Assembly: GCA_964397485.1 (NCBI GenBank)
Contig: CAYNHT010000004.1
Location: 7,825 to 71,824 of the forward strand
Length of the DNA: 64,000 nt
Reading direction: 5' to 3'
Source of the DNA: an uncultured Muribaculaceae bacterium
GTDB taxonomy: Bacteria > Bacillota_I > Bacilli_A > RF39 > UBA660
Within the stretch, counting starts at the first letter, position 1, and every line of letters begins with the position of its first letter. Below the pieces are notes generated by a model. That model was not told the origin of the DNA and searched no databases. It worked only from the letters and a program-made list of their open reading frames with translations. This document shows positions 1 to 47,798 of the stretch, piece after piece. The position numbers and the translations under genes were made by a program.

Positions 1-1663
1 CCTTTGTCGGTTCATTATTAATTCCAAAATCAGAGGTTAAATCTATAATTCGCCATTTTCTTGTTTGGATAGTAATTCCCGGATTAGCATTGTATAATAT
101 TACTGAATTAACTGTATTGGTCGGAATATATATATTAGCTAAAGTTTCAAATAAATCGCTTCCTGTATGGGTTGCCCAAGAACCTGTTGCGGATTCAGTC
201 GTTAAATATGTTCCAGACACTGGTGATTTAACTTCAGCTACAGTGTAATACTTGTTTCCAACTACAACAGGTTGAACATATTTTGATTTAGCATAATAAA
301 TTCCATACGATGTTGTAAAACTCTGAACATTATTAGATAAAATAGGATTGGTAGCTTGATATAAAGCAAAATTATCAGCTACCCCATTACCACTTGTATC
401 AGTAGAAAAATCACCATATGATCCTATTACATTAGTAGCAGTAACTCCTTTTATTTCTATATCAACTGATTTATAATAATTATTACTTGTATATATGTTA
501 GGTAAGATTTTATTATCTGAAATCGGATCAATCGTTACAATTACTGTTCTTGTTTTTGTTGTTGCTTCATTCCCGGCTAAATCAGAGACATTATAAGTCA
601 CCGTATATTCACCAGGATTATTTAAATCAAGATTACTTGTAACTTCTATTTCACTTGTTATATCACCTAACATATCATCAAGTGCGGTTACCCCATTATT
701 TGTATAAGCACTTCCAACTTTTACATTTACAGTTGTCGGATTAACAGTTATAACTGGCGGTGTTGTATCAATATTTGTTACTTCAAATAAAATTCCACTT
801 ATTTCATTTGTTCCATCCGTTATTCTTGCGATTACACTTCCATTATCGGTAAATGTTATTTCTTTAGTTGCTGATGGTGTTTCTACTAATAGCCACGTTA
901 TGGCTCCGTCTAAACTATACTCATATACATATCCAGCTTTTCTTTCTGGATAGTTAATTAGAACGATAGCACTTGTCGTCCACCCTGTAGGGTTTATACT
1001 ATAAGTAGGTATTTCTATATCAGTTGTTGTTATTGATAATTCCTCTGATACAGTCGATAATTCATTATTGTTATATACTCTTACTTTAAACGAATAACTT
1101 GTATCATTTGTAAGTCCTGTAAAATTATAAACATTGCTTATTTGCTTTGTTGTCCAAGTACTCCCGTTATCTTTACTAAATTGATATCCATTTATTCCGC
1201 TTTCTGAATCTTCAGCGGTAGCTACTATTGTTATTGAACTACTTGTTACTAGATTTGATGTTATTGATAATATTGGTGGGGTTGTGTCTAAAGCATCACA
1301 ACTTCCTTCTATTATTATAATTTCTTTATATGTTCCACCGGCACAATATTTTCCATTACTGACTTTATCTAATTCTAAAATTCCGTCTTCATTTTTTAGA
1401 ATTTTCCCACTCGTAAAATTCTTATTTTTAATTTGAATTCGATCATCTATTATATTTATTCCTTCTTCAGGAAATACATCAAATTCATTTGATGCTATAA
1501 ATAAATCTGCTGCACCAAAAACACTTCTTAAACTAGCTTCATATGAAGATTTTTGAAATTTACCTATTATCCCTAATACAAGAGGGATTGTTATTAATGC
1601 AACAATAGAAAGAATTACTATTACTGCAAGTAATTCAATTAATGTAAAACCTCTTTTTTTCAT
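1..1663 (-). CDS. Giant prepilin-signal protein, array A paralog 3; N-terminus and ~550 aa present, C-terminus lies beyond the window start. My own translation of the minus strand gives MKKRGFTLIELLAVIVILSIVALITIPLVLGIIGKFQKSSYEASLRSVF..., then FN3-like segments that align almost identically with the two upstream paralogs.
   Basis: Start is ATG at 1661-1663 (minus) preceded by AGGAGG. Class III signal peptide motif KRG|FTLIE. Absent from the ORF track because no stop occurs inside the window. Only a 29-nt gap to the upstream gene, so probably co-transcribed. Confidence 0.75.
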   Translation of the reverse strand, partial: MKKRGFTLIELLAVIVILSIVALITIPLVLGIIGKFQKSSYEASLRSVFGAADLFIASNEFDVFPEEGINIIDDRIQIKNKNFTSGKILKNEDGILELDKVSNGKYCAGGTYKEIIIIEGSCDALDTTPPILSITSNLVTSSSITIVATAEDSESGINGYQFSKDNGSTWTTKQISNVYNFTGLTNDTSYSFKVRVYNNNELSTVSEELSITTTDIEIPTYSINPTGWTTSAIVLINYPERKAGYVYEYSLDGAITWLLVETPSATKEITFTDNGSVIARITDGTNEISGILFEVTNIDTTPPVITVNPTTVNVKVGSAYTNNGVTALDDMLGDITSEIEVTSNLDLNNPGEYTVTYNVSDLAGNEATTKTRTVIVTIDPISDNKILPNIYTSNNYYKSVDIEIKGVTATNVIGSYGDFSTDTSGNGVADNFALYQATNPILSNNVQSFTTSYGIYYAKSKYVQPVVVGNKYYTVAEVKSPVSGTYLTTESATGSWATHTGSDLFETLANIYIPTNTVNSVILYNANPGITIQTRKWRIIDLTSDFGINNEPTK

Positions 1664-1692
1664 GATTTCCTCCTACACTTGTGTAATAGTGA

Positions 1693-4080
1693 TTATTTTT
1701 GTGTCTCATATATAGCTTTAATTTCTCCGTCACTTAAGTTTCTATTAAACACTAAAGCTTCATCAATTATTCCATCATATACATAGTTATTCAAATATGA
1801 TGTAGACCATTGACCTACAAGAATTTTATTGTTTGTAAATTTTATAGGCTTAGTTACTAAATGTTCAGAATCTAAAGCACCATTTATGTATATTTTTATT
1901 TTGTTATTAGCGGAATCATATACCATTGCTACATGACTCCAAACATTTAATGGAATACTTTGATTACTAATCTTTGTAGAATATTCTCTTGTTTCATCAG
2001 TATAACCTATTGACAAGGATAATTTATTCCCAGTTAAGTTCAAACCCAAGTTAGAATTAATCGAATGATTATGAACAGAAATAATTCCTTTTAATCCGGA
2101 TAGAGTTGTAGGTTTTATCCATGCAGCAAAGGTTTGGCTACCGTTTAAAGTAATATTGTTGTTAGATAAAATATAATCATTTACTCCATCAAACGAATAT
2201 GCACCTGCTCCAACTTTACTATCTGTAATCCATCTAGGAGTATTTGAAAGTGACAAAGAAGCAATATAGTTATTGTTAGAATAATCTTGTACTGTTCCAG
2301 TTCTAGTGTTAGCTGTAAATGGTGTATCATATGGTTTTAATTCAATTTGTGGTTGTGTCATATAAATATATGACCCAGCTGGATTAGCTCCATTTGCATA
2401 GCAAAATATTCTTAAATTATATCCGCTAGTTACATTATCATCATTATGAGTTTTTAGCACTACTTCTCTTTTTACCCATGTTCCTTTTGGGGTAGTATTA
2501 TTCCAATCTTTATTAGTATAGTTAACTTCAGAATAATGATGGCAACTTCCACCAAGACAAGCTCCATCAGGTAAAGCATGACGGTGTATTTCCCAATTTG
2601 ATGTCAAAGTAACATCATTAGGAATATAAATCCACATACTCATTGTAGCAACCGTATTGGCAGGAACTCTTATTGATGTTGTAGCTGCTATACCACCTGT
2701 TCCATCTGGATTAGCCATCAACTTAATTACCGGTTTATTATTAAATTTAATTTCATCAGTTATTTCATACGTTACTGTACTATATGGAGACCACCCTGAT
2801 AATGAAAAACTTTCAAAAGTAGTATCAATTACGTTTGATAATAAATTTTCAGTTGGTTCTTGAAAATCATCAAATTTATAATATGCTGATGAGGTTGCTA
2901 AATTCAAATTATTCATTTTTATTACGTCACTTGTTTTTACTGATTCATTACCAATATCATCTATTGCTTTGATATGTAAATAATATTCTCCAGTGACACC
3001 ACTTTGTGTAATAGTATTACCAGTATAAGCCGTCCATCCACTACTTGGGGTTTCGTTTGAGGTATTAAAAACATAGTATTTTTTAGCTTGAGAAAAATTC
3101 GGTTCTACTATATTAATAGTCATTGTATGACTTGTATTATAATTGTTATTATCTAATGTTATTGTTATAACTGGTGCAGTTGTATCTACATTCATTACTG
3201 AATATGTAGCACCACTAACTATATTGGTACCATCCTTTATTCTGGCGATTACATTTCCATTTTCTTCAAATAAGAGGTCTTTTGATGTCAGAGGTTGTTC
3301 AACTTCCTCCCAAGTTAAAGCGTTATCTAAACTATATTCATATACATATCCTGTTTGTCTTTCAGGATAATTAATAGTTACAACAGCACTAAGAGTTGGA
3401 GTTGATGGATTTATACTGTAAGTTGGAATTGGTATATCATTTGTTGTTACGACTAACTCTTCTGATATTGTTGACAATTCATTATTGTTATAAACTCTAA
3501 CTTTAAATGTATAACTTGTATCATTTGTAAGCCCAGTAAAATTATAAACATTACTTATTTGTTTTACTGTCCAAGTACTCCCGTTATCTTTACTAAACTG
3601 ATATCCATTTATTCCGCTTTCCAAATCTTCGGCATTAGCTACTATTGTTATTGAACTACTTGTTACTAAATTAGATGTAATAGATATTGTGGGAGGCGTT
3701 GTATCTAAAAGATCACAACTTCCTTCTATTACTATAATGTCCTCCATTGTACCACCAGCACAATATTTTCCATTACTCACTTTATCTAATTCTAATATTC
3801 CATCTTCATTTTTTATTATTTTTCCGCTTGTAAAGTTTTTATTTTTTATTTGGATTTTATCATCCATTACATTTATTCCCTCATCCGGAAATATTATAAA
3901 CTCATTACTAGCAATATATAAATCAGCAGCTGCAAAAACACTTCTCATGCTTGCTTCATAAGATGACTTTTGAACTTTACCTATTATTCCTAGTACTAAG
4001 GGTACTGATATTAGTGCAACTAACGCTAGTATAACGATTACCGCTAATAATTCGATTAATGTGAAACCACTTTTCTTCAT
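1693..4080 (-). CDS. Giant prepilin-signal protein, array A paralog 2 (795 aa): class III signal peptide + FN3-like domains + C-terminal LamG/concanavalin-A-like domain.
   Basis: N-terminus MKKSGFTLIELLAVIVILALVAL. Segments TTPPTISITSNLVTSSSITIVANAEDLESGINGYQFSKDNGSTWT are FN3-like. C-terminal YSFDGVNDYI...FAAWIKP...WSHVAMVYDSANNKIKIYINGAL is a LamG-type signature. GGAG-type RBS upstream. Confidence 0.8.
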   Translation of the reverse strand: MKKSGFTLIELLAVIVILALVALISVPLVLGIIGKVQKSSYEASMRSVFAAADLYIASNEFIIFPDEGINVMDDKIQIKNKNFTSGKIIKNEDGILELDKVSNGKYCAGGTMEDIIVIEGSCDLLDTTPPTISITSNLVTSSSITIVANAEDLESGINGYQFSKDNGSTWTVKQISNVYNFTGLTNDTSYTFKVRVYNNNELSTISEELVVTTNDIPIPTYSINPSTPTLSAVVTINYPERQTGYVYEYSLDNALTWEEVEQPLTSKDLLFEENGNVIARIKDGTNIVSGATYSVMNVDTTAPVITITLDNNNYNTSHTMTINIVEPNFSQAKKYYVFNTSNETPSSGWTAYTGNTITQSGVTGEYYLHIKAIDDIGNESVKTSDVIKMNNLNLATSSAYYKFDDFQEPTENLLSNVIDTTFESFSLSGWSPYSTVTYEITDEIKFNNKPVIKLMANPDGTGGIAATTSIRVPANTVATMSMWIYIPNDVTLTSNWEIHRHALPDGACLGGSCHHYSEVNYTNKDWNNTTPKGTWVKREVVLKTHNDDNVTSGYNLRIFCYANGANPAGSYIYMTQPQIELKPYDTPFTANTRTGTVQDYSNNNYIASLSLSNTPRWITDSKVGAGAYSFDGVNDYILSNNNITLNGSQTFAAWIKPTTLSGLKGIISVHNHSINSNLGLNLTGNKLSLSIGYTDETREYSTKISNQSIPLNVWSHVAMVYDSANNKIKIYINGALDSEHLVTKPIKFTNNKILVGQWSTSYLNNYVYDGIIDEALVFNRNLSDGEIKAIYETQK

Positions 4081-4118
4081 AGTCTTACTCCTTTAATATA
4101 GTCTCTATCTTCATGTAC

Positions 4119-4147
4119 ATTATAATATATTTCTACCTTTTTAGCAA
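4119..4147 (-). promoter_or_regulatory. Sigma-A-like promoter for array A paralog 2 (TTGCTA-17 nt-TATAAT), ~35 nt upstream of the ATG.
   Basis: On the minus strand, -35 TTGCTA (plus 4142-4147), 17-nt spacer, -10 TATAAT (plus 4119-4124). The same architecture recurs upstream of paralog 1. Confidence 0.45.
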
Positions 4148-4178
4148 GAAAAAAGAAAACTATTTATTTATAGTTTTC
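4148..4178 (-). terminator. Rho-independent terminator after array A paralog 1.
   Basis: Hairpin GAAAAC-TATTTATTTA-TAGTTTTC (4155-4178) followed on the minus strand by TTTTTTC. Confidence 0.5.
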
Positions 4179-4190
4179 TAAATGTTTCAC

Positions 4191-6479
4191 TTATTTTTTA
4201 TAGTTATATGTTGTCGTCCAAGAGTTAATACTATTAACTACTTTTCTTATTCTGCCATCTAAATAAAGTGGTAAATTTATTGTTGTAGTTTGATTGTGAT
4301 TTAAATTAACAGTATTTGTAGTACTTATATAAGGCTCATACGTTGTAGCCTCAGCTCCCTTTTCTAACTGAATCTGTGAAAAATATTTTATTGCAGAATC
4401 AGGAACTGATAAAGGTTGTGCCTGTATTGCTATTTGATTAAAATCTGCAGGGGTCGTAAACGTTAGTTTAGATATCCCAGATGAACCAGCTTCAATATGA
4501 TTTCCAAAGTAGTATTGTGTCCCATTATCAATATTTATTCTTATACGGTTTTGACCAGCTGATGAGGCTGTTGCATCTATAAAAGCCGATAAAGTATAAG
4601 TTGTATTTGGTTCTAATTCAACTAATGTTACAGTCGAAGGTGAATTAGTAACCGTTTTATTATTTATAACAGATAAATTTTTACCCTCACTTACGAATGT
4701 AACATTTGTATTTGCAGTATTATCAAAATATTTTGGAAAAATTGTATTGTAATCAAATAAATTTATATCATTGTCAACTCCAAAAATTTCCGTTGTATTG
4801 ATAAAAGTCATTCCATCAAAATACATTACATCATCTTCAACATTAGTGGTGCTATACTGTCTTCTTGGGTAAAATGAAACTGATGTTGGATTATTCACTG
4901 TAAAAGTTACAGATTGTTTTTGCCATATATTAGTCGTATTATTCATATTACTATCTATTGTATTTATAGAACCTGAATAAAAACTATTTGACGTACTATG
5001 AATGTTGGTATTTGGAAACAATGTGTAATAACTAATGTAATACTTATCAGTAGAATTAGGAATATTATATGCAAATCTCAAACCATGTCCGTTTAATGTT
5101 GTGTTAAATGTTACTTTTTGTGAATAATTACCACTTACCTTATAAAGGGAATTTAATTCACCATGTTTTCCATTATAAATATAAAAGTTATCAGCAATAC
5201 CATCTAAATCACTATCAATTTCAAAATCACCATAAGTTCCAAATAAATTAGTTGCAGTAACACCTTTAACTTCTATATCAACTGATTTATAATAATTATT
5301 ATTTGTATATACATTAGGAAAAATCGAATTAGATGCCAATAAGTTTAGAGTAACAATTACTGTTCTTGTTTTTGCCTCAGCAACATTTCCTGCTTGATCG
5401 CTCACATTATAAGTAATTGTATATTCACCAGGATTATTAATATCTAGATTACTTGTAATCACTATATCATCAGTGATATCACCTAACATATCATCAATAG
5501 CAATAACACCTATATCATTATAAACACTTCCTGCTGTTATATTAACAATAGTTGGAGTTACTGTTATTACTGGCGAAATTGTATCTATATTGGTAACTTC
5601 GTACGATGTTCCACTTACCTCGTTTGTACCATCTAATATTCTAGCTATAATATTACCATTTTCATTAAAAGTTACTTCTGTTGTTATTGAAGGTTCTTCT
5701 AATTCTTGCCAACTAATTGCACCATCTAAACTATATTCATATATATATCCTGTTTGTCTTTGTGGATAATTAATAGTAACAACAGCACTTTGTGTCCATC
5801 CTGATGGATCTATACTATAAGTTGGAATTGGTATGTCACTTGTTGTTACAACCAATTGTTCTGATACCGTTTTTAAATCATTATTGTTATAAACTCTAAC
5901 CTTGAATGTATAATCGGTATTATTGGTTAAGCCCGTAAAATTATAAACATTACTTATTTGTTTAGAAGTCCAAGTAATCCCGTTATCTTTACTGAATTGA
6001 TACCCATTTATTCCGCTTTCCAAATCTTCAGCTGTTGCTACAATAGTTATTGAACTACTTGTTACTAAATTAGAGGTAATAGATATTGTTGGTGGAGTTG
6101 TATCTAATTGATCACAGCTTCCTTCAACAATTAAAAGATTGTCAATTGTTCCACCAGCACAGTATTTTCCATTACTTACTTTATCTAATACTAATTGACC
6201 TTCTAAATCTTCAAATATTTTACCGCTAGTGAAATTCTTGTTTTTAATTTCTATCTCAGCATCCATTACATTTATTCCTTCTTCTGGAAAATCAATGAAA
6301 TTTTTACCAGCTATATATATATCTGTAGCTGTAAAAAGACTTCTCAAACTTTCCTTGTAAGCAGATTTTTCAACACTACTTATTATTCCTAATACAAGGG
6401 GAAATGTGATTAAAGCAACAATCGATAAAATTACAATTACAGCTAATAATTCTATTAATGTAAATCCCTTTTTTTTCAT
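4191..6479 (-). CDS. Giant prepilin-signal protein, array A paralog 1 (762 aa): same signal peptide and FN3-like N-terminal half as paralog 2, but an unrelated C-terminal half.
   Basis: N-terminus MKKKGFTLIELLAVIVILSIVAL. Roughly the first 300 aa are near-identical to paralog 2; the C-terminal ~400 aa are Asn/Thr/Tyr-rich and unrelated to the LamG paralog. RBS AAGGAGG upstream. Confidence 0.8.
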   Translation of the reverse strand: MKKKGFTLIELLAVIVILSIVALITFPLVLGIISSVEKSAYKESLRSLFTATDIYIAGKNFIDFPEEGINVMDAEIEIKNKNFTSGKIFEDLEGQLVLDKVSNGKYCAGGTIDNLLIVEGSCDQLDTTPPTISITSNLVTSSSITIVATAEDLESGINGYQFSKDNGITWTSKQISNVYNFTGLTNNTDYTFKVRVYNNNDLKTVSEQLVVTTSDIPIPTYSIDPSGWTQSAVVTINYPQRQTGYIYEYSLDGAISWQELEEPSITTEVTFNENGNIIARILDGTNEVSGTSYEVTNIDTISPVITVTPTIVNITAGSVYNDIGVIAIDDMLGDITDDIVITSNLDINNPGEYTITYNVSDQAGNVAEAKTRTVIVTLNLLASNSIFPNVYTNNNYYKSVDIEVKGVTATNLFGTYGDFEIDSDLDGIADNFYIYNGKHGELNSLYKVSGNYSQKVTFNTTLNGHGLRFAYNIPNSTDKYYISYYTLFPNTNIHSTSNSFYSGSINTIDSNMNNTTNIWQKQSVTFTVNNPTSVSFYPRRQYSTTNVEDDVMYFDGMTFINTTEIFGVDNDINLFDYNTIFPKYFDNTANTNVTFVSEGKNLSVINNKTVTNSPSTVTLVELEPNTTYTLSAFIDATASSAGQNRIRINIDNGTQYYFGNHIEAGSSGISKLTFTTPADFNQIAIQAQPLSVPDSAIKYFSQIQLEKGAEATTYEPYISTTNTVNLNHNQTTTINLPLYLDGRIRKVVNSINSWTTTYNYKK

Positions 6480-6513
6480 ACATCCTCCTTTATATATCCT
6501 TTGTCATATGTTA

Positions 6514-6542
6514 ATTATAATATATTTATAGTTAATTAGCAA
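6514..6542 (-). promoter_or_regulatory. Sigma-A-like promoter for array A paralog 1 (TTGCTA-17-TATAAT).
   Basis: -35 TTGCTA (plus 6537-6542), 17-nt spacer, -10 TATAAT (plus 6514-6519), then AAGGAGG RBS and ATG at 6479. Confidence 0.45.
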
Positions 6543-6550
6543 GAAATCCA

Positions 6551-6581
6551 ATAAAAAAAGAGGTAATTAATAAATCCTCTT
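6551..6581 (-). terminator. Rho-independent terminator downstream of pnp (hairpin also present on the plus strand).
   Basis: Stem AAGAGG (6558-6563) / CCTCTT (6576-6581) with a 12-nt loop, flanked by a T-run on the minus strand. Confidence 0.5.
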
Positions 6582-6588
6582 TTTGTTT

Positions 6589-8709
6589 TTATTTAATTGC
6601 TTCTTTTCGTGATAAATTAAGTCTTCCTCTTTTATCATATCCTAAAGATTTAACAATTATTTCATCTCCGACTTTAACAACATCACTAGGTTTTTCAACT
6701 CTTTCCTCAGCTAAGTGTGACACATGGACTAAACCATCACATCCCGGCCATAATTCAACAAAGCATCCAAAGTCTTCTACTTTAACAACTTTACCAGTAT
6801 ATATTTGTCCAGTTTCAACTTCACGGATTGTATCTTTAATTAACTCCATTGCTTTATCTATAATACTATAATCTGAATGGTATATAATTACTCTACCATC
6901 ATCTTCTATATCTATTTTGACAGCATCTTTATCATTTACATTAACAACGTTACTAGCTTCTTGAATAATTTTTGTAATCGTTTCTCCACCTCGACCAATA
7001 ACATCTTTAATTTTTTCAGGATTAATTTTAAATTGTCTTATTTTTGGAGCATATTTACTTAATTCTTTTCTAGGTTCACTAATAACTGATTCCATTAAAT
7101 CTAAAATTTGCATTCTTGCTTTTTTAGCTTGAGTTAACGCTTCTTCTAATATTTCTTTAGTTACACCTTTAATTTTGATATCCATTTGTAAAGCACAAAT
7201 ACCATTACGAGTACCAGCTACTTTAAAGTCCATATCACCCATATGATCTTCTAGTCCTTGAATATCTGTTAAAATTGTATACTTATCATCTTTAGTTATT
7301 AATCCCATTGCAATTCCAGCAACAGGAGCCTTTATTGGTACACCAGCAGCCATTAATGATAAACATCCTGAACATATACTTGCTTGACTACTTGATCCAT
7401 TACTTTCTAAAATTTCCGAAACAACACGAATTGTATATGGAAATTCTTCTTCACTAGGTATTACTTGCAATAAAGCTCTCTCACCTAGCGCGCCATGACC
7501 AACTTCACGACGTCCTGGTGAACCATACCTACCAGTTTCTCCAACACTAAATTGAGGAAAATTATAATGAAGCATAAATCTTTTTTCTTCTTCAATTCCT
7601 AAACCATCTAGTATTTGATGTTCACCAAGTGCTCCTAATGTAGTTACTGCTAAAGCTTGTGTTTGTCCTCTTGTAAACAATGCAGAACCGTGTGTTCTAG
7701 CAAGTAAATCGATAGAAGCAGATAACGGCCTAATCTCATCCATTGCTCTTCCATCAGGACGTATATGTTCTTCAGTAATTAATCTTCTAACTTCATAAGA
7801 TTCAATCTCATCAACTACCTTAGAAACTTGTTTTAATATATTAGTCAATTTTTCGTTGCCTTCATAAACGCTAGTAAAATGTTCAATCGCATCTTCCTTA
7901 ACTTTATCAATAGCCGCATATTTTTCTAATTTTTCTTTAATTTGAATTGCATGTATCATTTTATCGGTTGCAAATTCTTTTACAGCAGCTTCAACTTCAG
8001 GATCAATTGTGTCTAAGCTAACAACAATTTTTTCCTTTCCTATTTCTTTCATAATCTCTGTTTGGAATTCAACTAATTCTTTAATAGCATCGTGTCCAAA
8101 CATTATAGCATTAATCATATCTTCTTCAGATACTTCCTCACTTCCAGCCTCAACCATGTTAACAGCATCTTTAGTACCTGCAACAGTTAAGTTAATATCA
8201 CTTTCTTCTAATTGGTCAGCTGTTGGATTTATAACAAATTGTCCATTAACCCTTCCGACAATAACTCCAGCAACAGGGCCAGAAAATGGAATATCACTTA
8301 TTGATAAAGCTAATGAAGACCCAAATAAAGCAGTCATTTCAGGAGTGTTATCTTGATCAACACTCAAAACAGTATTAATAACTTGTACTTCGTTTCTAAA
8401 ACCTTCTTCAAATAAAGGTCTAATTGGTCTATCTATCAATCTTGATGTTAAAGTTGCATTTTCAGTAGGTCGTCCCTCCCTTTTAATAAATCCACCAGGA
8501 ATTTTACCAACTGAGTACAGTTTTTCTTGATATAAAACCATTAATGGAAAGAAATCAGCAGTAATCGCATTCTTACTCATTACAGCCGCAGTTAAAACAG
8601 CAGTATCACCATACCTAACTAATACCGATCCATTTGTTTGTTTTGCTAATTCACCAGTCTCAACTATAATTGTTCTTCCTCTAAAATCTAATTCGTAAAC
8701 TTTCTTCAT
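6589..8709 (-). CDS. pnp: Polyribonucleotide nucleotidyltransferase (PNPase), 706 aa.
   Basis: Full-length similarity to PNPase: two RNase PH-like cores, KH domain, and an S1 domain at the C-terminus ([15 protein letters not shown]). Confidence 0.95.
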
Positions 8710-13590: not shown

Positions 13591-14544
13591 TTATTTACGA
13601 ATAGCTCCATTTTCGCATTTATTCCCCCATGCATCAATTAATTCTTTATCTCTATGTATACAAATTATTTCACAGTTATTAGCACATTTCTTACACTCTA
13701 CTCCCCTTGTTTCGAAATGCATATCAGTTAGAGCAAAATCAAAATCATTTTCTTTTTTTGAATTTTTAGCTAATATTGCAACGCCTAATGCTCCCATTAA
13801 ATGTGCATATTTATCAACATGGATTTTTTCATTAGTTGCTTCTTCAAAAGCTTTAATGACTCCAATGTTTTTACTAACGCCCCCTTGAAATACAATAGGT
13901 GGTTTTATATTTTTTCCTTTTCCTACGTTATTTAAATAATTAGTAACAACCGCTTTACATAAACCAGCAATTATATCTTCTTTTTTATGCCCAATTTGAG
14001 CCTTATGAACTAAATCACTTTCAGCGAAAACGGTACACCTTGCAGCTATTTTGGTGGGATTTTTTGATTTTAATGCCCAATGTCCAAAATCTTCTACCTG
14101 TAATCCCAAACGTTTTGCTTGAGATGATAAAAATGAACCTGTACCAGCTGCACATAATGTATTCATCGCATAATCTACTACTATTCCATCATCAATTAAA
14201 ATTATTTTAGAATCTTGACCACCTATTTCAAAAATAGTTTTAACATCAGGATAAACAGATATCGTTCCAATGGCGTGAGCCGTAATTTCATTTTTAACAA
14301 TACAGGCATTTAGCATAGTTCCAACTAATTTTCTAGCAGAACCCGTTGTGCCAACTGCTTTTACTATTATATTAGTATTTTTTACTTGTTGTTTTAAATC
14401 ATTGATTAAATTTTTTACTGCATTAATAGGACTTCCTTCGGTCCATATATATTTTTCAGCAATAATCTTATTATTTTCATCAATTATTACACCTTTAGTA
14501 GATATTGAACCTATATCTACACCTAAATAAGCCTTTTTCATCAT
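13591..14544 (-). CDS. BadF/BadG/BcrA/BcrD-type ATPase (CoA-substrate-specific enzyme activase, HgdC-like) with an extra C-terminal Cys cluster.
   Basis: N-terminal GVDIGSISTKGV actin-like ATPase motif, GTTGSAR, and C-terminal CKKCANNCEIICIH. Overlaps the upstream gene by 4 nt (ATGA). Confidence 0.7.
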   Translation of the reverse strand: MMKKAYLGVDIGSISTKGVIIDENNKIIAEKYIWTEGSPINAVKNLINDLKQQVKNTNIIVKAVGTTGSARKLVGTMLNACIVKNEITAHAIGTISVYPDVKTIFEIGGQDSKIILIDDGIVVDYAMNTLCAAGTGSFLSSQAKRLGLQVEDFGHWALKSKNPTKIAARCTVFAESDLVHKAQIGHKKEDIIAGLCKAVVTNYLNNVGKGKNIKPPIVFQGGVSKNIGVIKAFEEATNEKIHVDKYAHLMGALGVAILAKNSKKENDFDFALTDMHFETRGVECKKCANNCEIICIHRDKELIDAWGNKCENGAIRK

Positions 14545-15617
14545 CTTTTTTCCTTTCTCATGCTAAGCATATCATGGAATGCTTCTAATCTTGTTTTAAT
14601 ACCTGTCTCACTTGTTTGTGAATCAAAACTAAAATATAATACAGGTATTTTATAGTCATTACTTATTTTTTGTAGTGCCGGCATAGCATTTATTTCAGGT
14701 ATGCAACCGAAGGGTTTTACATGAACAACACCATCATAACCTTGTTCAGCCAATAACTTTGTTCTTACTACACTATCAGTTCCATCAGCACCAATTTCAT
14801 ATTTCAAATATTTACCTGCATTTTTCATCAAATATTTTTTTATTTTACTATGATTAAATAATAGATATGTAACCGTTATAAACCGACTTACTACCATTCC
14901 TTTTTTTGCTAATTCTTTTTCAATATAGTAATTACTAAAAGGCTCCATCACTACATATAATTCTCCTACTACTCCTACTTTTAATGGATTCTCTGGTTTT
15001 TCAACTTCAATATTACGAAACATTTTATTATATTTTTTTGATATTTTAAAAAGATGTATAAAGCCTTTTACTTTTTTTAGTTCATTCAAAAACTCTTTCT
15101 TCAATTTTTCAAAACTACCTTCTTCAACTTCAAAACCAATATTTGATCTTATATATTCATCTATTTTATCCATAAGTACTATCATTCGTGCGGATAACAA
15201 AAAATAATAAGTAAATTTTATAAATGAAAGCCTATTATTTAACCTTTTAAAAGTTTTATAAAGTGAATGAGGTGTAATATCATCAGCATTAAGTAAACTA
15301 ATAAACTCAAATTCATATCCTAAATCTCTTAAAATTTGTTCTTGAATTTCTCCATAGTATCCAAATCTACAACCCCCACCCGCTTGAACCAACACATTTG
15401 CTTTCTTTTCTAACGCTTCGATATAGTTACCTAAATTATATTTAAAAGGTACACAGACAAAATCAGGACTATATTTAGAACCTAATTCTAATGTCTTTTT
15501 AGTTATTGGCGGTGGTTTTAAAATCTTCAAATCAGTCGTATGTTTTAACAGATATTCAATTACGACATGATAATCTCCCATGTGTGGGAAGCTAATTATT
15601 TTTTCTTTATTTCCCAA
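14541..15617 (-). CDS. Activase-associated, dehydratase-related protein (DUF2229 / 2-hydroxyglutaryl-CoA dehydratase D-component-like).
   Basis: 358 aa; FPHMGDY...SPDFVCVPFKY...VQAGGGCRFGYY motifs characteristic of this family; in operon with the activase ATPase. Confidence 0.6.
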   Translation of the reverse strand: MGNKEKIISFPHMGDYHVVIEYLLKHTTDLKILKPPPITKKTLELGSKYSPDFVCVPFKYNLGNYIEALEKKANVLVQAGGGCRFGYYGEIQEQILRDLGYEFEFISLLNADDITPHSLYKTFKRLNNRLSFIKFTYYFLLSARMIVLMDKIDEYIRSNIGFEVEEGSFEKLKKEFLNELKKVKGFIHLFKISKKYNKMFRNIEVEKPENPLKVGVVGELYVVMEPFSNYYIEKELAKKGMVVSRFITVTYLLFNHSKIKKYLMKNAGKYLKYEIGADGTDSVVRTKLLAEQGYDGVVHVKPFGCIPEINAMPALQKISNDYKIPVLYFSFDSQTSETGIKTRLEAFHDMLSMRKEKR

Positions 15618-16547
15618 TTATCTTTCCACCACCTTTTTCTTTTCTGTTATAATATCAATAAAACTTTCTATTCTAGTTTGCAATCCAGCTTCCGCTTGTA
15701 ATTCATCAAGTATTATATTTGCAATCGGAATTTTTTTTATCTTTCGCTGACATAATTCAGTAACAAGCGAATCAGGCCCACATGGGAAAGTTGTAATAAA
15801 AATAATACCATCTATTCTTTCTTGGTAATATTCAATAGCTCCTATTAATTCCTTATTATAAGTCCAATATAATCCTTTTGATATATTTATAGACCTTTTT
15901 ATTGTCTCATGTCTGTCAGCTATATCAGCAAATACAGGAAGAACTCCTAATTGTTCTAAATGCTTTATTATTGGATAACCAAGCAATTTATCATATGTAT
16001 TATATGGATGAGATACAATCAATATTTTAAGTTTGTCAGTACAATTTAAAATATCTTCTTGCCTTGTTGACATACGAATTTCCTCTTCTATTTCCTTTTT
16101 TTTAGCACAATCATAAGCTTCTAATGTTGTTTCTAGATCCTTATTTAATATTTTGCCCATGTTTATAAATGCATCTAATTCACTTTGATTTTTATTAACA
16201 TCAACATTATAGTCTAGGATTTTAACGTTTGAAAATGTGTTATTAACAATATCATATAAAGCATTAAATTTTGTACAAACAACTTCGTTTTTTCCAAAAC
16301 TGACAATCCTTGGGATTAAAATATAATCAACTTTATTAATTAAATAATGAACATGTCCCATATAAATTTTTGAAGATAAACAACTTTCATCAATTGAAAA
16401 ATTTATACCGTTTTTTAATATTTCTCTATTTGTTTCTGGGCTTAATATAATTTCACAACCAATTTGTTCGAAAAAAGTTTTCCATAGATATTGATACTTA
16501 TAATATAAAAAAGCTCTTGGCAAGCCTATCTTTATTTTGTTTTGCAT
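15618..16547 (-). CDS. 2-hydroxyacyl-CoA dehydratase-like (HgdB/BcrC/BadD family) protein.
   Basis: 309 aa; the IGLPRAFLYY...DESCLSSKIYMGHV...ILIPRI pattern is shared with the paralog at 36833..37747; first gene of a three-gene operon. Confidence 0.55.
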   Translation of the reverse strand: MQNKIKIGLPRAFLYYKYQYLWKTFFEQIGCEIILSPETNREILKNGINFSIDESCLSSKIYMGHVHYLINKVDYILIPRIVSFGKNEVVCTKFNALYDIVNNTFSNVKILDYNVDVNKNQSELDAFINMGKILNKDLETTLEAYDCAKKKEIEEEIRMSTRQEDILNCTDKLKILIVSHPYNTYDKLLGYPIIKHLEQLGVLPVFADIADRHETIKRSINISKGLYWTYNKELIGAIEYYQERIDGIIFITTFPCGPDSLVTELCQRKIKKIPIANIILDELQAEAGLQTRIESFIDIITEKKKVVER

Positions 16548-21228: not shown

Positions 21229-22146
21229 ATGGACAATAATGAAATAAAGCAGTTAATCACGCAGTTCTCGCATTCTAAACCAGATACAATAGGGATATTT
21301 GGATATGGATCTGGAGTAAATAAACAAGCTGGTTATACAAATAAAGATAGACCACAAATCGATTTAATTATGGTAGTAAATAATACGGAAAAATGGCATC
21401 TTGAAAATATTAAGATTAATCCTGATAATTATTCTCTTACTTCTAAATTATTCTTTTCTAAGATAGATTCAAAATGGCAACATTTTGCAACTGACATATG
21501 CTATTTACCATATATTAAGGAATTAGGGCACACTTTTAAAATTGGTATTATAAGTAAAGATGATTTATTGAATGATTTATACAACTGGGAATCTTTTTAT
21601 TTAGCAGGAAGATTTCAAAAGATTATTTTACCAATTAAGAGTACTGCAGAGTTAGATGTAGCAATTTCTAAAAATAGAGAAAAAGCTATAACTATAGCTT
21701 TACTATTAATGAGAAAAAAAGAGTTGAATTTATATAATCTATTTAAAAAAATATGTTCGTTATCATATCTTGGGGATATAAGAATGGGAATAGCAGAAAA
21801 TCCAAAGAAACTAGATAATCTAGTTAAAGGTGGTTATGAAGAATTTAAAAAAATCTATTCTAACAGTAACTTATTTCAAATAGATTCAAATGAAAAAATA
21901 ATCATTAATCACGATTCATTATATTCATCTATGGAACAATTGCCTAAGAGTTTAATAACTCATTTAGAAACTAATAACTACTCATTAGAACAATTAATAA
22001 CATTAAGAAAATTGTTAATAGATTTTTTTACAGAGAAAAATAAACATGTTAGTAGAGACCAGGCTATAAAAGGTTTTTTTACTGCTGGTCCAGTTAATTC
22101 TATATCATATTTAACAGAAAAAATATTAAAGAAAATCAAAAAATAA
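21229..22146 (+). CDS. Nucleotidyltransferase-fold protein, possibly Tam41/Mmp37-like (phosphatidate cytidylyltransferase-like).
   Basis: 305 aa; GIFGYGSGV...QIDLIMVV (NTase G[SG]...D motif) and YLAGRFQK, as recalled for the Mmp37/Tam41 family. Recalled from memory, not searched. Confidence 0.35.
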   Translation: MDNNEIKQLITQFSHSKPDTIGIFGYGSGVNKQAGYTNKDRPQIDLIMVVNNTEKWHLENIKINPDNYSLTSKLFFSKIDSKWQHFATDICYLPYIKELGHTFKIGIISKDDLLNDLYNWESFYLAGRFQKIILPIKSTAELDVAISKNREKAITIALLLMRKKELNLYNLFKKICSLSYLGDIRMGIAENPKKLDNLVKGGYEEFKKIYSNSNLFQIDSNEKIIINHDSLYSSMEQLPKSLITHLETNNYSLEQLITLRKLLIDFFTEKNKHVSRDQAIKGFFTAGPVNSISYLTEKILKKIKK

Positions 22147-22684: not shown

Positions 22685-24973
22685 TTAAATCTTCTTTCCA
22701 CCTTCACTGATTGTTATATCAGTGTTTTTTATACTTACCGCAACAACACGTAAATTCTTTAATTCTTCAATAGTTTTTTCTCTGCTAGAAGTTGTCTTAA
22801 CTTCTAAACCAGTACTATCATCAATAAGTCTACCTTTATCATCATAGTGATATCCAGGAGCAGCCTCATATCTTTCATTAATTCCATCATTTTGATTTTG
22901 AATTGAAGTATTTGAATTATAATTTGTATTATAATTTGTATTGTTATTTAGTTCACGATTAAGTTGTTTCTTCCCGTCATAATAACCTGTACTATAGTTT
23001 TCAGTGTAACTTTTAGTAAATGCATCCCTATAAACTTTATCACCAGAAATAGCACCAAAATTATCATTATATCTAGCACCGTTATACCCATCTGCATATC
23101 CATCTGCATATCCAGATTTTTTTCCATCTCTAATTCCATCAAGTCTTAATTGTTCATTTGTCTTGCTAGATGATTTTTCATTTTCAAGTTTCTTTTGACC
23201 TTCAGCATATCCAATTTTATATTGAGCTTTAAATCCTTCAATATATGCATCTCTATACTTTTTCTCACCAGATACTGAACCATAATTATCGTTATAAGTA
23301 TATCCCTTATAACCATCAGTTAACCCTTTATCATAACCTTTTTGTCCACCATCTTTTAAACCTTCTGCTCTTAAATCAACAACTTTATTTTCATTTTGAC
23401 GTTTCTTTTGACCTTCAGCATATCCAACTTTATATTGAGCTTTAAATCCTTCAATATATGCATCTCTATACTTCTTCTCACCAGATACTGAACCAAAACT
23501 ATCACTATAAGAATATCCTTTATAACCATCTGTAAAACCTTTATCGTATCCTTTTTGTCCACCGTCTTTTAAACCTTCTGCTCTCAAGTCAACAACTTTG
23601 GTTCCTTTTTCACGTTCAAGTTTCTTTTCCCCATCGCTATACCCTACTTTATATTGTGTTGTATAACTTTGTTTGAAAGCGTCAACAAATATCTTATCTC
23701 CAGTTACAGTTCTATATCCTTTATCATTATATGAATAACCTTTATAACCATCATTTAAACCGTTATCATAACCCATTTGACTACCCGCTAAAACACCAGC
23801 TACTCTTAATTCCTCATTTTGGTTTTCTTTTTTTAATTGCTCTTCTATTTTCTTTTGTTGTTCTTGTTTTTCTTTTTCTGTTGGATCTACAGCAATAAAT
23901 TTTTCACCAGTATTTTTATCAGTAACAATCTTATCTGTTGATTGAACTTTTTTGTCATTTGAAGTTCCTGTTTTAGGTTTATTATCAATAATTGCTTGTT
24001 CTAAACTTGGATTTGGTACATATTTAGCATTTAATAAATCAATTTTCTCTTGAATCTTCATTTCAATTTCTAATCCAGTTAATAACTCAATTGCAGAAAC
24101 CCCATCGTTATTACTTTTAATGTTTTTTGCTTCTTCAAGTTTAGCTGTTAACATTTCTTTAACATTGGTTTTTTCACCATTATATTTAGTGTTAGCAGTT
24201 GATTTACTTTCTAAATTACAATTTTCACCTGTACCAAAAATAATTTTACTCATACTAGCAGTAGGTACACGATAATTATTATTAATCGTCATTCTTTCCA
24301 TAGCTAAAAGTAATTTGAATCTAACAAGGTTAGAAGCTGCATCTGTTGATTTATAATTTTCAGTTGCAAATTCATTTTCAACAAATTTATTTAATTCTCC
24401 TGCTACAGTTGATTTACTATTAGATGTATTAAAAATAGCAATTTTTTCTTGTAACTTCTCAACAGCACTAGCTGAATCTTTATCAGCAACAAGACTTGCA
24501 ATATCAACTATTGTAGAAGGTGTTGATGTAATTGTATCATCTAGTAATGTGTTTGCTACAAAATCAAAATTACGAATAATTGATTCTTTTGTCTTAGTAG
24601 CAAATTGCAATCTTGCGTAATCACTTGGTTCAATATCATTTATATTAAGCACTGTATAAAAATCTACCCATTGCTCTATAGAAATATTATTAATCCCTTT
24701 TGTTAAAGCATCAACATAAACATCTGATATTCTATTAATCATTTCTTGATTACTATTAGGATCAAATGCCATATTTGGCGCTAAATTTTTTTGATTTTCT
24801 TTATCAATAGTAATACTGTTTGGCACAGCAGATCTAAAATTTGCTTTTTGAATTGCATATGAACCAAACACTACTGCTGCTGCAGTAGTAAGTGCAATCC
24901 AAGTAACTTGTGATTTTGTAAAAGTTTTTTCTTTTTTTAATTCTTGTTCTGTAATTTTTTTCTTATTATCCAT
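22685..24973 (-). CDS. Membrane-anchored surface protein with four tandem 71-aa repeats. Likely true start is MDNKKK at 24973; the ORF-track extension to 25000 covers the RBS GAAGGGGG.
   Basis: N-terminal TM segment (WIALTTAAAVVFGSYAI); coiled/charged middle; repeats VVDLRAEGLKDGGQKGYDKG(F/L)TDGYKGY(S/T)Y.D..GSVSGEKKYRDAYIEGFKAQYK(V/I)GYAEGQKK occur 4 times. Confidence 0.7.
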   Translation of the reverse strand: MDNKKKITEQELKKEKTFTKSQVTWIALTTAAAVVFGSYAIQKANFRSAVPNSITIDKENQKNLAPNMAFDPNSNQEMINRISDVYVDALTKGINNISIEQWVDFYTVLNINDIEPSDYARLQFATKTKESIIRNFDFVANTLLDDTITSTPSTIVDIASLVADKDSASAVEKLQEKIAIFNTSNSKSTVAGELNKFVENEFATENYKSTDAASNLVRFKLLLAMERMTINNNYRVPTASMSKIIFGTGENCNLESKSTANTKYNGEKTNVKEMLTAKLEEAKNIKSNNDGVSAIELLTGLEIEMKIQEKIDLLNAKYVPNPSLEQAIIDNKPKTGTSNDKKVQSTDKIVTDKNTGEKFIAVDPTEKEKQEQQKKIEEQLKKENQNEELRVAGVLAGSQMGYDNGLNDGYKGYSYNDKGYRTVTGDKIFVDAFKQSYTTQYKVGYSDGEKKLEREKGTKVVDLRAEGLKDGGQKGYDKGFTDGYKGYSYSDSFGSVSGEKKYRDAYIEGFKAQYKVGYAEGQKKRQNENKVVDLRAEGLKDGGQKGYDKGLTDGYKGYTYNDNYGSVSGEKKYRDAYIEGFKAQYKIGYAEGQKKLENEKSSSKTNEQLRLDGIRDGKKSGYADGYADGYNGARYNDNFGAISGDKVYRDAFTKSYTENYSTGYYDGKKQLNRELNNNTNYNTNYNSNTSIQNQNDGINERYEAAPGYHYDDKGRLIDDSTGLEVKTTSSREKTIEELKNLRVVAVSIKNTDITISEGGKKI
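22980..23810. repeat. Intragenic tandem DNA repeat, ~213-bp period x ~4 (two central copies >90% identical).
   Basis: GACCTTCAGCATATCCAA...CTTTATATTGAGCTTTAAATCCTTCAATATATGCATCTCTATAC recurs at 23197 and 23410; it encodes the 71-aa protein repeats. Confidence 0.75.
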
Positions 24974-24999
24974 AAATAAGACCCCCTTCTTTAGTACCA

Positions 25000-26268
25000 T
25001 TATTTCTTAACAATTTTATTACCTGTTAATTGATACCCTTGTTTCAATAAACTAGTATCATTATTATGACTCCATTTAACTGTTTTACTTCCGTTTACAA
25101 TATTTCTAGTTCTATAACTATAATAAGTTGTTGTTATTGGTGTTTTGACAATTCCATATACCGGATCTTTTTTAGTTTTGGTAACATAACCTGTAAATAC
25201 TTCTCTAGTCATATAAATTGGTGTCTCTTTATTTTGATAAACTGCACATTGTTGTTGACCATTTTTAACTTCATATTTAGTTCTTGTATAAACTTTATAA
25301 GTTGCATACGTTCCAGAACTACAATTTCCACAATCATAATCACCGCTTGACCCTGAAACATAAACATATTGTTTTAATTCAGTATCTTTAGGTGTTGTTG
25401 AGAAAACCTGAACACCTTGGTAAACCCAATCTGTGTATTTATATGTTCCTGTTCCTACATAAACAGTCTCATACTTTGTACAAACTTTTTCTGTTTTAGT
25501 TCCAACTTGAACTTGTTGATTTTCATATGTAGCTTCTTGATAAGATGTTGTCTTGTAAGCAACAATTTTTTCTTCTTCTTTATAGTAAGTAGAAGTTGTT
25601 GTTTTAACATCAGTTAAACTATTTGAGTATAATCTGTTTGTTGTCCAATTTGACCAACTACTCCAATCCGTATACGAACTTCCAACAATCTTTACATATT
25701 CATATAGATATTCCGTTGTTGGTTTTGTCGGTGTCGGTTTTGTTGGTGTTGGTTTTGTCGGCGTTGGTTTTGGTTTCGTTGGAGTTGGTGTTGTTACGAC
25801 TGGCTTTGTATCTTCTTCTTTTTCACATATATCAGTCTCACAATAGTTATAGCACCCCATGTGAACTATAATATAATCTTCTTTATCAGAGCATTTTAAA
25901 TTAATTTTCATCCTGTATTCATCATCCATTTTTGTTATATCAACAAATGAATTATTTGAATCACATTGTCTACCTTCGCTATCAACAAATGGTAATACTA
26001 TTTTTTTCTCTAACATTTCTGATAAAGTTATAGAAACTTTATCGCCAACATTTTTTGGCAATCTTGTTGTAGTAAAGTAATCTTTAGCAGCTTCACGCAT
26101 ACTCATAACATTTTCATTATAAATACTAACATATAATGGCTCAACTGCCTTTTTTACTGCTCCCTTAGTTGGAAAAAGCCAAATCAGTATAAAAATGAAT
26201 AATGCAACAAATAATATTTGCAAAACTACATCCCTTATAGAAAAGGTTTCTCTTCTTTCATTATACAT
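25000..26268 (-). CDS. Membrane-anchored extracellular protein with a Pro/Thr/Lys-rich linker and a Cys-rich domain.
   Basis: N-terminal TM segment (VLQILFVALFIFILIWLF); linker TPTPTKPKPTPTKPTPTKPTPTKPT; stop overlaps the downstream start (ATGA-type junction at 25000), implying co-transcription with the repeat protein. Confidence 0.65.
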   Translation of the reverse strand: MYNERRETFSIRDVVLQILFVALFIFILIWLFPTKGAVKKAVEPLYVSIYNENVMSMREAAKDYFTTTRLPKNVGDKVSITLSEMLEKKIVLPFVDSEGRQCDSNNSFVDITKMDDEYRMKINLKCSDKEDYIIVHMGCYNYCETDICEKEEDTKPVVTTPTPTKPKPTPTKPTPTKPTPTKPTTEYLYEYVKIVGSSYTDWSSWSNWTTNRLYSNSLTDVKTTTSTYYKEEEKIVAYKTTSYQEATYENQQVQVGTKTEKVCTKYETVYVGTGTYKYTDWVYQGVQVFSTTPKDTELKQYVYVSGSSGDYDCGNCSSGTYATYKVYTRTKYEVKNGQQQCAVYQNKETPIYMTREVFTGYVTKTKKDPVYGIVKTPITTTYYSYRTRNIVNGSKTVKWSHNNDTSLLKQGYQLTGNKIVKK

Positions 26269-32710: not shown

Positions 32711-33535
32711 CTATCGTTCTAATTTTTTTACCTTATCTTTATCTTCATACAACCCATCAAATATAGGTTTACCTTCTATTTCTCTATTTTGTAAATCTTC
32801 AATATCAAACATAGCTCTTACTTCTTCTATTGTAAGTCCATTTAATTCCTCATCATCAGTATTAATATATTCTGGTCTAATATTGTCTGATTCGATTTTA
32901 AAATCAATATTTTCTTTTGGAATATTATAATCTAAATTATTAAATTTATCTTTCCCTAAAATATATCCTCTTATTACCTTATAGCGAGAAAATTCTGTTA
33001 TTAAACTACTCTCCCTAAATAATAAATTATCATAAACATATTCATCTACCAATGTTTTTAATCTCTTATTGATATATCCATTTTCAACCATATAACGATA
33101 AAAACGTCCTTTTTGCATATCTGATATAAAACCACGGTAAACATTCAAAAATTCTCTATCATTTGTATTTACATATGTTGTATATTTGGAAGCAAAGTAT
33201 TTAAGTTGCGGTTGATCAGCATAAATAACATCTAGCATTTTGGTTTCTTTACTTTCTTTATAAGTAATATATATTTCACCGTGTTTAAAATTAATGTGCC
33301 CCTTACTTTCGAGATAAGCTAATAAATGATCTTCATCATCAAAATCAGTTGTTCTTGCATCAATCGTCGATAAAAAAGCTTTTTCTTTAAAAGCAATTTC
33401 ATTACTTTCTTCATCAATTTCTTTAAACTTTATTAGATATTCTTGAAATGATACAAAATCATTTACAACTAGACTATAGCGGCGACGCCCTTTTGTACTA
33501 CTCATAATATCACTCCTAATGACTAATTTCATCAC
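32711..33535 (-). CDS. Hypothetical protein (274 aa) between topA and xerC.
   Basis: ORF with coding-like composition; no recognisable motif. Confidence 0.4.
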   Translation of the reverse strand: MMKLVIRSDIMSSTKGRRRYSLVVNDFVSFQEYLIKFKEIDEESNEIAFKEKAFLSTIDARTTDFDDEDHLLAYLESKGHINFKHGEIYITYKESKETKMLDVIYADQPQLKYFASKYTTYVNTNDREFLNVYRGFISDMQKGRFYRYMVENGYINKRLKTLVDEYVYDNLLFRESSLITEFSRYKVIRGYILGKDKFNNLDYNIPKENIDFKIESDNIRPEYINTDDEELNGLTIEEVRAMFDIEDLQNREIEGKPIFDGLYEDKDKVKKLER

Positions 33536-33605
33536 TTTGGTTGATTAACTATTTAAATTATATCAGACTTTATCTTTTTTAGCAAACAAAAAAAGTAGAT
33601 AACTT

Positions 33606-47713: not shown

Positions 47714-47744
47714 ACACTTTACTACCTTTCTATTATACATATAA

Positions 47745-47773: not shown

Positions 47774-47798
47774 TTAAATGTATATACATATATATTGA

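Follow-up and report, generated by a model that had tools for sequence, protein, structure and literature searches.

Three large paralogous genes, here termed A, B, and C, lie downstream of pnp at the left end of the 64-kb stretch of contig CAYNHT010000004.1 that was analyzed in this work (referred to as the window), and their products are probably modular type IV pilins that present glycan-binding heads on a filament. All three proteins start with a class III (prepilin) signal and a pilin module, which are followed by a stalk of FN3- and Ig-like domains and by a C-terminal head. A preliminary description of this stretch had reported at least three tandem paralogs downstream of pnp, the leftmost of which was truncated at the edge of the window. 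A public metagenome contig (JGI 3300033161 Ga0334893_1000005; 609 kb) that is identical to the window over the array region indicates that the array comprises exactly three genes: the truncated gene C encodes a protein of 749 amino acids, and no further paralog directly follows when the sequence is extended leftwards, the next genes being a convergent HIT-family gene and then suf genes. The public annotation of the encoded proteins is that of prepilin-type N-terminal cleavage/methylation domain proteins.

Class III signal and pilin module

The leader of A, B, and C, MKK(K/S/R)G|FTLIELLAVIVIL, is short and basic, ends with a Gly, and is followed by Phe at +1, Glu at +5, and about 20 hydrophobic residues. 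All three proteins were found to match PF07963 with 27.1 to 31.8 bits (cut-off 21.2) and TIGR02532 with 26.5 to 32.6 bits (cut-off 16.3). With these scores above the curated cut-offs and a pilin fold in the structural model described below, the N-terminal signal is of the class III (prepilin) type that had been proposed earlier and not an ordinary Sec-type one. Gly-1, Phe+1, Glu+5, and the whole α1N helix are at least 90% conserved in 20 diverse homologs of the shared N-terminal part. Retention of Glu+5 is expected for assembling subunits of type IV pili (T4P) and not for a mere membrane anchor. The equivalog models of ComGC (25 to 29 bits; cut-off 75) and GspG (26 to 30 bits; cut-off 88.85) matched the N-terminal helix alone, and because these scores are far below the cut-offs, A, B, and C were rejected as competence or type II secretion system (T2SS) pseudopilins in the strict sense.

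The leader is followed by what had initially been noted as a Cys-containing module. Its two cysteines, Cys107 and Cys122, are conserved among the paralogs. In a phmmer search of the PDB, the best match of the A pilin module was the type IV pilin PilE1 of Streptococcus sanguinis (8pfb_G; E 3.8e-5), and residues 6 to 115 of B matched the same protein, which is a major pilin of a monoderm T4P, with an E value of 1.1e-5. The further PDB sequence matches of full-length B at E<=0.1 were geopilin, GspG, MshA, and one NagJ FN3-like structure. An AlphaFold2 model of full-length B, built from an alignment of 20 rows, is confident over residues 1 to 390 (pLDDT 80 to 95) and of low confidence over residues 391 to 644. 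At its N-terminus, a 52-residue helix (residues 8 to 59) is packed on a four-stranded sheet (residues 85 to 119; pLDDT 80 to 90), with the Cys107/Cys122 region included. This arrangement of a long helix on an antiparallel β-sheet is the predicted pilin fold, and the model and the PilE1 match together therefore place the Cys-containing module in the globular part of a pilin.

Stalk domains and shared carrier

The unit common to A, B, and C, referred to as the carrier, consists of the pilin module, an FN3, and an Ig domain, and spans about 300 amino acids. In A, the pilin module (residues 1 to 125) is followed by an FN3-like domain (126 to 215), an Ig-like domain (216 to 300), a DUF5011 Ig-like domain (305 to 378), and then the head. 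In B, the carrier (residues 1 to 300) is followed by an extra Ig-like domain (303 to 390), a β region (391 to 630), and a LamG_3 domain (631 to 788). The B model has β-sandwich domains at residues 131 to 212, 220 to 295, and 304 to 389 (pLDDT 80 to 95). Although the Pfam fn3 matches are sub-threshold, Foldseek matched the model to structures with tandem FN3 domains (E 1e-8 to 1e-10) and to the BIg adhesin SiiE, the E values of all these matches ranging from 1e-7 to 1e-10, so that the FN3-like domains described initially are present. In A, Bact_surface_Ig-like scored above its cut-off, as did N_methyl. The N-terminal 300 amino acids are indeed shared by the three proteins, but calling them almost identical was an overstatement: the carriers of the paralogs are 74 to 79% identical at the amino acid level and 75 to 90% identical at the nucleotide level.

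C-terminal heads

One head had been described as a LamG/ConA-like lectin domain, and this applies to B only: residues 631 to 788 match LamG_3 (PF13385) with 83.8 bits (cut-off 27.6; E 1.8e-23), and the same profile detected no LamG domain in A and C. In a Foldseek search, the modeled LamG_3 domain matched the CBM40 sialidase lectin domains 6er3 and 4c1w (TMt 0.62 to 0.64; root mean square deviation of about 3 Å), and also pentraxins; the CBM40 matches are the sialic acid-binding domains of Ruminococcus gnavus and pneumococcal sialidases.

The head of A is predicted to contain two CenC/CBM4-22-like jelly rolls (residues ~397 to 580 and ~587 to 710) and a small β tail, as seen in an AlphaFold2 model of residues 380 to 762 (pLDDT 82). 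Foldseek matched this model to the tandem carbohydrate-binding modules (CBMs) CBM22-1/CBM22-2 of Xyn10C (4xup; E 1e-7) and to CBM4-2 (TMt 0.62 to 0.65), the E values of the CBM22 and CBM4-2 matches ranging from 1e-7 to 1e-4. The other matches were CBMs of GH101 enzymes and the C-terminal domains of Cry and Vip3 toxins, and in a library of viral structures the model matched "CBM-cenC" tail, tail-fiber, and host-specificity proteins with an E value of 1e-9. At the level of profiles, A has no PF02018 match, and its best Pfam match, HpiC1-like, reached 21.7 bits and stayed below the 27-bit cut-off. An exhaustive HMMER search with residues 380 to 762 of A retrieved, apart from C, weak relatives only, and delimited two modules: M1 begins with N-L-x-G-x-x-G-D-F-E-x-D-S-x-x-D-G-x-A-D, and M2 begins with GKNL and ends with IQLEKG..AT.YEPY. 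Among these relatives, P0253 matched a tail-fiber family of PHROGs; a direct search of PHROGs with the A head itself gave no match. C is homologous to A over its full length and agrees with it in the carrier, the Ig domain, the CBM-like head, and the C-terminal tail. On the strength of these models, all three heads are predicted to be β-sandwiches of the carbohydrate-binding type, which belong to two different superfamilies.

Divergence of the paralogs

The preliminary description had considered the C-terminal halves to be entirely different. This holds for B as compared to A and C: its similarity to both stops abruptly at about codon 305, and neither BLASTP nor hhalign detected sequence homology between its head and those of A and C (E 0.06 to 0.14). 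It does not hold for A and C, which are homologous from end to end, with 53% identity over the full length and 44% identity over the last 380 amino acids (E 4e-44). Carrier, additional Ig domain, and C-terminal tail are common to the two, and the middle of the proteins has diverged strongly; over codons 440 to 700, dN and dS both reach ~0.9 to 1.1, values that are limited by the alignment. Their nucleotide identity is accordingly a mosaic, amounting to ~75% up to codon ~440, 36 to 41% over codons 450 to 550, 62% and then 45 to 57% past codon 550, and 74% over the last 50 codons.

Recent gene conversion was considered as the source of the shared N-terminus and was rejected for A, B, and C. Synonymous divergence (dS) in the carrier is 0.6 to 1.1 and hence near saturation, dN/dS is 0.10 to 0.28, and the longest identical runs between the three genes measure 29 to 33 nucleotides. 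Such a process is compatible only with the pair formed by the further paralogs D and E (see below), which share an identical run of 201 nucleotides. The likeness of the A, B, and C N-termini is thus that of old duplicates under purifying selection, which indicates that these genes are old paralogs, all copies of which are maintained, and not actively swapped cassettes.

The carrier family in the organism and in databases

Two further paralogs, D (755 amino acids) and E (649 amino acids), are encoded about 6.6 kb onward on Ga0334893_1000005; in another assembly, E is part of an array of three such genes. Singleton paralogs of 582 (P0013) and 979 amino acids (P0008) are located elsewhere among housekeeping genes. 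The organism thus holds at least 8 members of the carrier family. D and E have glycine-rich ALK_LTK_GRD heads, P0008 has Cys-rich repeats, and P0013 a unique head. Paralogs with ALK_LTK_GRD heads occur as a pair behind MBOAT/DHHW genes (L001, 18866-22250) and as a trio behind a sigma-70 gene in the assembly of a close relative (L084, 7604-14123); array size and context therefore vary between strains. In databases, 65 proteins carry the full 300-amino-acid carrier, and their last 200 amino acids fall into 26 sequence classes, which agrees with the earlier notion of a constant pilin-type carrier with exchangeable C-terminal heads.

Another array of giant proteins, termed the first array, is located at 45122-55783 (minus strand) of the window, between rpoC and the rpsL-rpsG-fusA-tuf cluster. 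Its four tandem paralogs of 844 to 883 amino acids share the class III signal with A, B, and C but differ from them in the pilin module, and their bodies are repeat-rich and β-propeller-like. Three of them end in a conserved C-terminal ...IYELRNFDMSITPTN, which is missing from the copy next to rpoC (53249-55783). A promoter-like site of the TTGACG type and an upstream hairpin accompany each of these genes. Together, the seven giant genes with a pilin-type N-terminus (1-6479 and 45122-55783) occupy ~16.6 kb, or 26% of the window. The scale is noteworthy, with one pilin-FN3-Ig carrier present in at least 8 copies next to a second family of four.

Tad operons in related Bacilli

Information on the machinery that may assemble these pilins comes from metagenome-assembled genomes (MAGs) of related Bacilli, in which Tad operons were identified directly upstream of murC (L011, 3547-8517; L012, 1180-6536; L038, 79-7164; L065, 1610-6340). 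In L011 and L012, where the Tad ATPase genes were located by tblastn, giant pilins that share the whole carrier with the array proteins (45 to 46% identity over 299 amino acids) are encoded ~1.5 kb downstream of a Tad-type operon, with murC in between. This operon encodes a 65-amino-acid Flp-like pilin (with G|QALVEY in L012), two TadE-like proteins, CpaE, CpaF, Ig-TadB, and TadC. In L065, the Tad-type operon is followed, after murC and two other genes, by a pilin gene ~3.7 kb downstream whose N-terminal signal is the same, and in L038 cpaF and tadB enclose N_methyl pilin genes that have the N-terminal helix in common with the array proteins. The TadB homolog of these operons is fused to an N-terminal DUF5011 (Bact_surface_Ig-like) domain, a domain type that also occurs in the pilin stalks. 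These neighborhoods suggest that a Tad-like machine may service the pilins, and their recurrence provides a lead on which machine assembles N_methyl pilins in this group of bacteria. A CpaF of the genome studied here was not among the best 120 of 8000 homologs of the L038 ATPase, all 120 of which are at least 73% identical to it.

A more far-reaching proposal is that, in the uncultured, small-genome, spore-forming Bacilli lineage studied here, giant N_methyl (T4a-like) modular pilins are assembled by a Tad-type (CpaF/TadB/TadC) machine rather than by a PilB/PilC or ComG machine, and that the amplified carrier family, with its dozens of head classes, forms the main, independently transcribed glycan-binding repertoire of the cell. 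We consider this a speculative and rather unlikely extension. If it were true, a Tad-assembled repertoire would be the pilus-borne counterpart of the sortase-anchored adhesin families of other bacteria.

Proposed function and alternative explanations

As modular type IV pilins, A, B, and C would be cleaved by a prepilin peptidase after Gly5 of the class III signal, which would leave Phe at +1 and Glu at +5. The hydrophobic α1N would hold the protein in the membrane, and the pilin module would be incorporated into a type IV filament by an assembly ATPase and a platform protein. Since the proteins are bulky, their place would probably be the tip of the fiber or its vicinity, or they would be spaced thinly along its length. 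A rod of two to three predicted FN3/Ig-like domains would hold the β-jelly-roll head off the fiber and the cell wall. The CenC/CBM4-22-like tandem of A and C and the LamG/CBM40-like lectin of B would act as glycan-directed adhesins, and the paralogs, built on a common carrier, would let the cell bind with several specificities. A and B would each be expressed with their own promoter and terminator, and C probably on the B transcript. Heads that bind glycans would be candidates for attachment to hosts, plant fiber, or other microbes, and the heads may also be mined for new lectins or CBMs.

Several observations weigh against this reading. Pfam scans of the other open reading frames (ORFs) of the window returned housekeeping or unknown genes only, and neither a prepilin peptidase nor an assembly ATPase, a platform protein, or a small major pilin was detected in the 64 kb; nor was such machinery found in the ~20-kb neighborhoods of the other paralogs, including P0013, P0008, and P0005. 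The genes are scattered among housekeeping genes outside any pil operon, and seven giant pilins are many for subunits confined to the tip. The Tad association in relatives is loose, because the operons of L011, L012, and L065 have a Flp-type pilin of their own and murC intervenes. Residues 391 to 644 of B are poorly modeled and have no domain assigned, and glycan binding is ascribed to the heads from their fold class only. The main alternative is that the proteins are unpolymerized surface lectins, in which the class III signal and α1N would serve for export and anchoring alone, like the archaeal "bindosome" sugar-binding proteins; an FN3/Ig stalk would span the Gram-positive wall, and the CBM/LamG heads would mediate adhesion or capture polysaccharides. 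In favor of this alternative, the genes are dispersed and monocistronic and lie outside any pilus operon; the copies are many and very large, the window having seven and the organism at least 8 paralogs of the carrier family; neither a small major pilin nor machinery was seen nearby; a stalk of three to four β-sandwiches is the spacer type of wall-spanning adhesins; and the organism makes peptidoglycan, as a FemAB gene in the window indicates. We nevertheless regard pilin-based anchoring as a plausible but unlikely explanation. Glu+5 and the whole α1N are at least 90% conserved, the PilE1-like globular domain is under purifying selection, which points to subunit packing rather than simple anchoring, and relatives have such genes in or beside a filament-assembly operon.

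The preliminary description had left open whether the array consists of polymorphic adhesin or effector cassettes. Adhesins are the best reading of the proteins, but their effector and polymorphic character has found no support. An array of the CDI, Rhs, or MafB kind would comprise a constant delivery domain whose C-terminal toxins are swapped with orphan cassettes, and tandem paralogs with a constant N-terminus and variable C-termini, the 26 head classes on the same carrier across the database, and the 201-nucleotide identical run of D and E, which implies some recent exchange or duplication, would fit it. Profile and fold searches of the heads, however, revealed CBM-like, LamG, or glycine-rich domains and no toxin, nuclease, or peptidase domain. 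No small immunity-type ORF was found behind any gene of the array or adjacent to it, the gaps between the genes (29 and 110 nucleotides) being free of ORFs, and no orphan head cassettes, which the preliminary description had suggested searching for, were found in or beside the array. As two of the three heads, those of A and C, are homologous, and carrier dS is near saturation with identical runs among A, B, and C of just 29 to 33 nucleotides, a toxin cassette array is very improbable. An equally slight chance, or one slighter still, is assigned to domesticated, prophage-derived receptor-binding proteins, that is, relatives of phage tail fibers that are no components of a cellular pilus. The head modules of A and C do have sequence and fold relatives among phage tail-fiber and tail proteins, but the array is flanked by pnp, rpsO, truB, HIT, and suf genes and not by phage genes, the N-terminal 125 amino acids are those of a pilin, a feature foreign to phage tails, and many cellular glycan-binding proteins also contain CenC-like CBMs.

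Gene layout and expression signals

The coordinates of the array genes and of their expression signals are compiled in Table 1; pnp is located at 6589-8709 on the same strand. The promoter TTGCTA-17-TATAAT that had been reported for two of the genes is present as an exact motif upstream of A and B, 35 to 40 nucleotides upstream of the respective ribosome-binding sites. Exact copies of TTGCTA-N17-TATAAT were observed three times in the window as compared to 0.05 expected, the third being located at 33557-33585 (minus strand) upstream of an unannotated 274-amino-acid ORF (32711-33535). A generic promoter scan gave 49 sites in the window versus 58 in shuffled sequences, so that the exact shared motif alone is enriched.

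The start of C is located 29 nucleotides past the stop of B, behind AGGAGG, and no promoter motif was found upstream of it; because of this short gap and the lack of a promoter motif of its own, C is probably cotranscribed with B. TTGAC-type promoter-like sites and upstream hairpins were also found for each of the remaining paralogs and for all four first-array genes, and a promoter-like motif of its own together with an upstream hairpin is found at every paralog except C.

Table 1. Genes of the modular pilin array and associated sequence features (window coordinates)
Feature	Coordinates	Strand	Remarks
Gene A	4191..6479	-	ORF, 762 amino acids, modular pilin (probable)
Gene B	1693..4080	-	ORF, 795 amino acids, modular pilin (probable)
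Gene C	1..1663	-	First 554 of 749 codons inside the window, rest beyond the left edge; P0002, locus L001
Pilin module of A, residues 1-125	6105..6479	-	Leader MKKKG, Phe+1, Glu+5, hydrophobic α1N, globular part with Cys107/Cys122
Promoter TTGCTA-17-TATAAT of gene A, sigma-70-like	6514..6542	-	Exact motif; region 82% identical over 39 nucleotides to the B promoter region
Promoter TTGCTA-17-TATAAT of gene B, sigma-70-like	4119..4147	-	Exact motif
AT-rich hairpin and T run after pnp, likely terminator insulating gene A	6552..6580	-	-8 kcal/mol, z -2.1
AT-rich hairpin and T run after gene A, likely terminator	4149..4178	-	-9 kcal/mol, z -4.2; 0 of 200 shuffles fold as well

Other genes of the window and traits of the organism

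Sporulation-related genes were identified in L081, L083, and L084, encoding SpoIIM, a YutH-like spore coat protein, and SSPI, and the FemAB gene is located at 38081-39334 of the window. Together, they indicate a walled, probably spore-forming member of the Bacilli with a small genome. The largest contigs measure 0.36 to 0.82 Mb. In databases, relatives are labeled as uncultured Bacilli, Tenericutes, or Erysipelotrichaceae, and the closest relative in a genome collection carries the label "Ignavibacteriales MAG183", which is probably due to misbinning.

Several other genes may be mentioned. Two overlapping ORFs at 22685-26268 (minus strand) have no Pfam matches and may encode further surface proteins: one, of 422 amino acids, has an N-terminal transmembrane helix, a PT-rich linker, and a Cys-rich body, and the other, of 771 amino acids, has four repeats of ~50 amino acids of the type GYDKG.TDGYKGYSY.D...YRDAYIEGFKAQYK.GY. 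A 158-amino-acid ORF at 43799-44275 (minus strand) has an N-terminal hydrophobic segment (HGWGLRAML...), a Cys pair, and no Pfam match; by BLASTP, the Cys pair shows a weak similarity (E 0.03) to the Cys-bounded region in the pilin module of the first array, and the ORF might encode a degenerate pilin-like protein. The gene at 21229-22146 (plus strand) matches Tam41_Mmp37, a mitochondrial-type phosphatidate cytidylyltransferase family that is unusual in bacteria, with an E value of 4e-65. Two sets of BcrAD_BadFG, HGD-D, and DUF2229 genes at 13591-16547 and 35719-37747 (minus strand) resemble 2-hydroxyacyl-CoA dehydratases with their activase.

Comparison with known systems

The array proteins resemble several known systems to differing degrees. 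Phage tail-fiber and receptor-binding proteins that have CBM-cenC modules share with the heads of A and C the fold and the motifs at the GKNL start and the IQLEKG..AT.YEPY end; the array differs in that it has no phage context and its proteins carry a pilin N-terminus instead of a tail attachment domain. The PilC/PilY1 tip adhesins of diderm T4P (PMC8179133) are similar in that a constant filament-docking module is combined with variable adhesive modules. However, PilY1 contains no pilin and docks onto minor pilins via a β-propeller, whereas the array proteins carry their own pilin module. CofB of enterotoxigenic Escherichia coli (ETEC) and TcpB of Vibrio cholerae (PMC8179133) are likewise large minor pilins with additional β-repeat or β-sandwich domains after the pilin module, and have been proposed to be tip-located and ligand-binding. 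They are type IVb pilins of diderm bacteria, encoded as single copies in a pilus operon, and the likeness to the array proteins is one of architecture only.

A close parallel is PilC of S. sanguinis, which consists of a pilin, an Ig, and a ConA-like lectin domain, binds sialylated and sulfated glycans, and has been modeled at the pilus tip (Shahin et al., PMC9934059). B has the same order of a class III signal, a pilin module, an Ig-like spacer, and a head of the ConA/LamG superfamily. Its stalk is longer, with three β-sandwich domains and an extra β region, and its pilin module is full-size and PilE1-like, whereas the pilin moiety of PilC is unusually short (PMC9934059). Furthermore, the array genes are located outside any pil operon, in multiparalog arrays with their own promoters. 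An orthology of B and PilC was considered and rejected: a search with full-length B against the PDB (E<=0.1) did not retrieve PilC, and the window contains no pil operon.

The array proteins are best read as members of the modular pilins as a class, for which more than 1,200 proteins with 264 architectures have been reported, N_methyl+PF13385 and N_methyl+FN3 being among the 15 commonest (Raynaud et al. 2021, PMC8179133). A, B, and C fall under the definition given there, which is an IPR012902/PF07963 N-terminus plus domains that are not specific to T4P biology, here LamG_3, Bact_surface_Ig-like, and FN3-like and CBM-like folds. The idea of a "carrier" with varied "effector" modules put forward in that study fits the 26 head classes seen on one carrier. 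Three differences can be noted, namely, that the carrier is a conserved 300-amino-acid pilin-FN3-Ig unit and not the pilin alone, that at least 8 paralogs are present in one small genome, with tandem arrays, and that the CenC-like tandem head of A and C lies below the Pfam thresholds. The design has thus already been described, and the array is no new kind of system but a clear multicopy example of it, well resolved in that at least 26 head classes are found on the same carrier, which has been amplified in the small genome of an uncultured Bacilli lineage.

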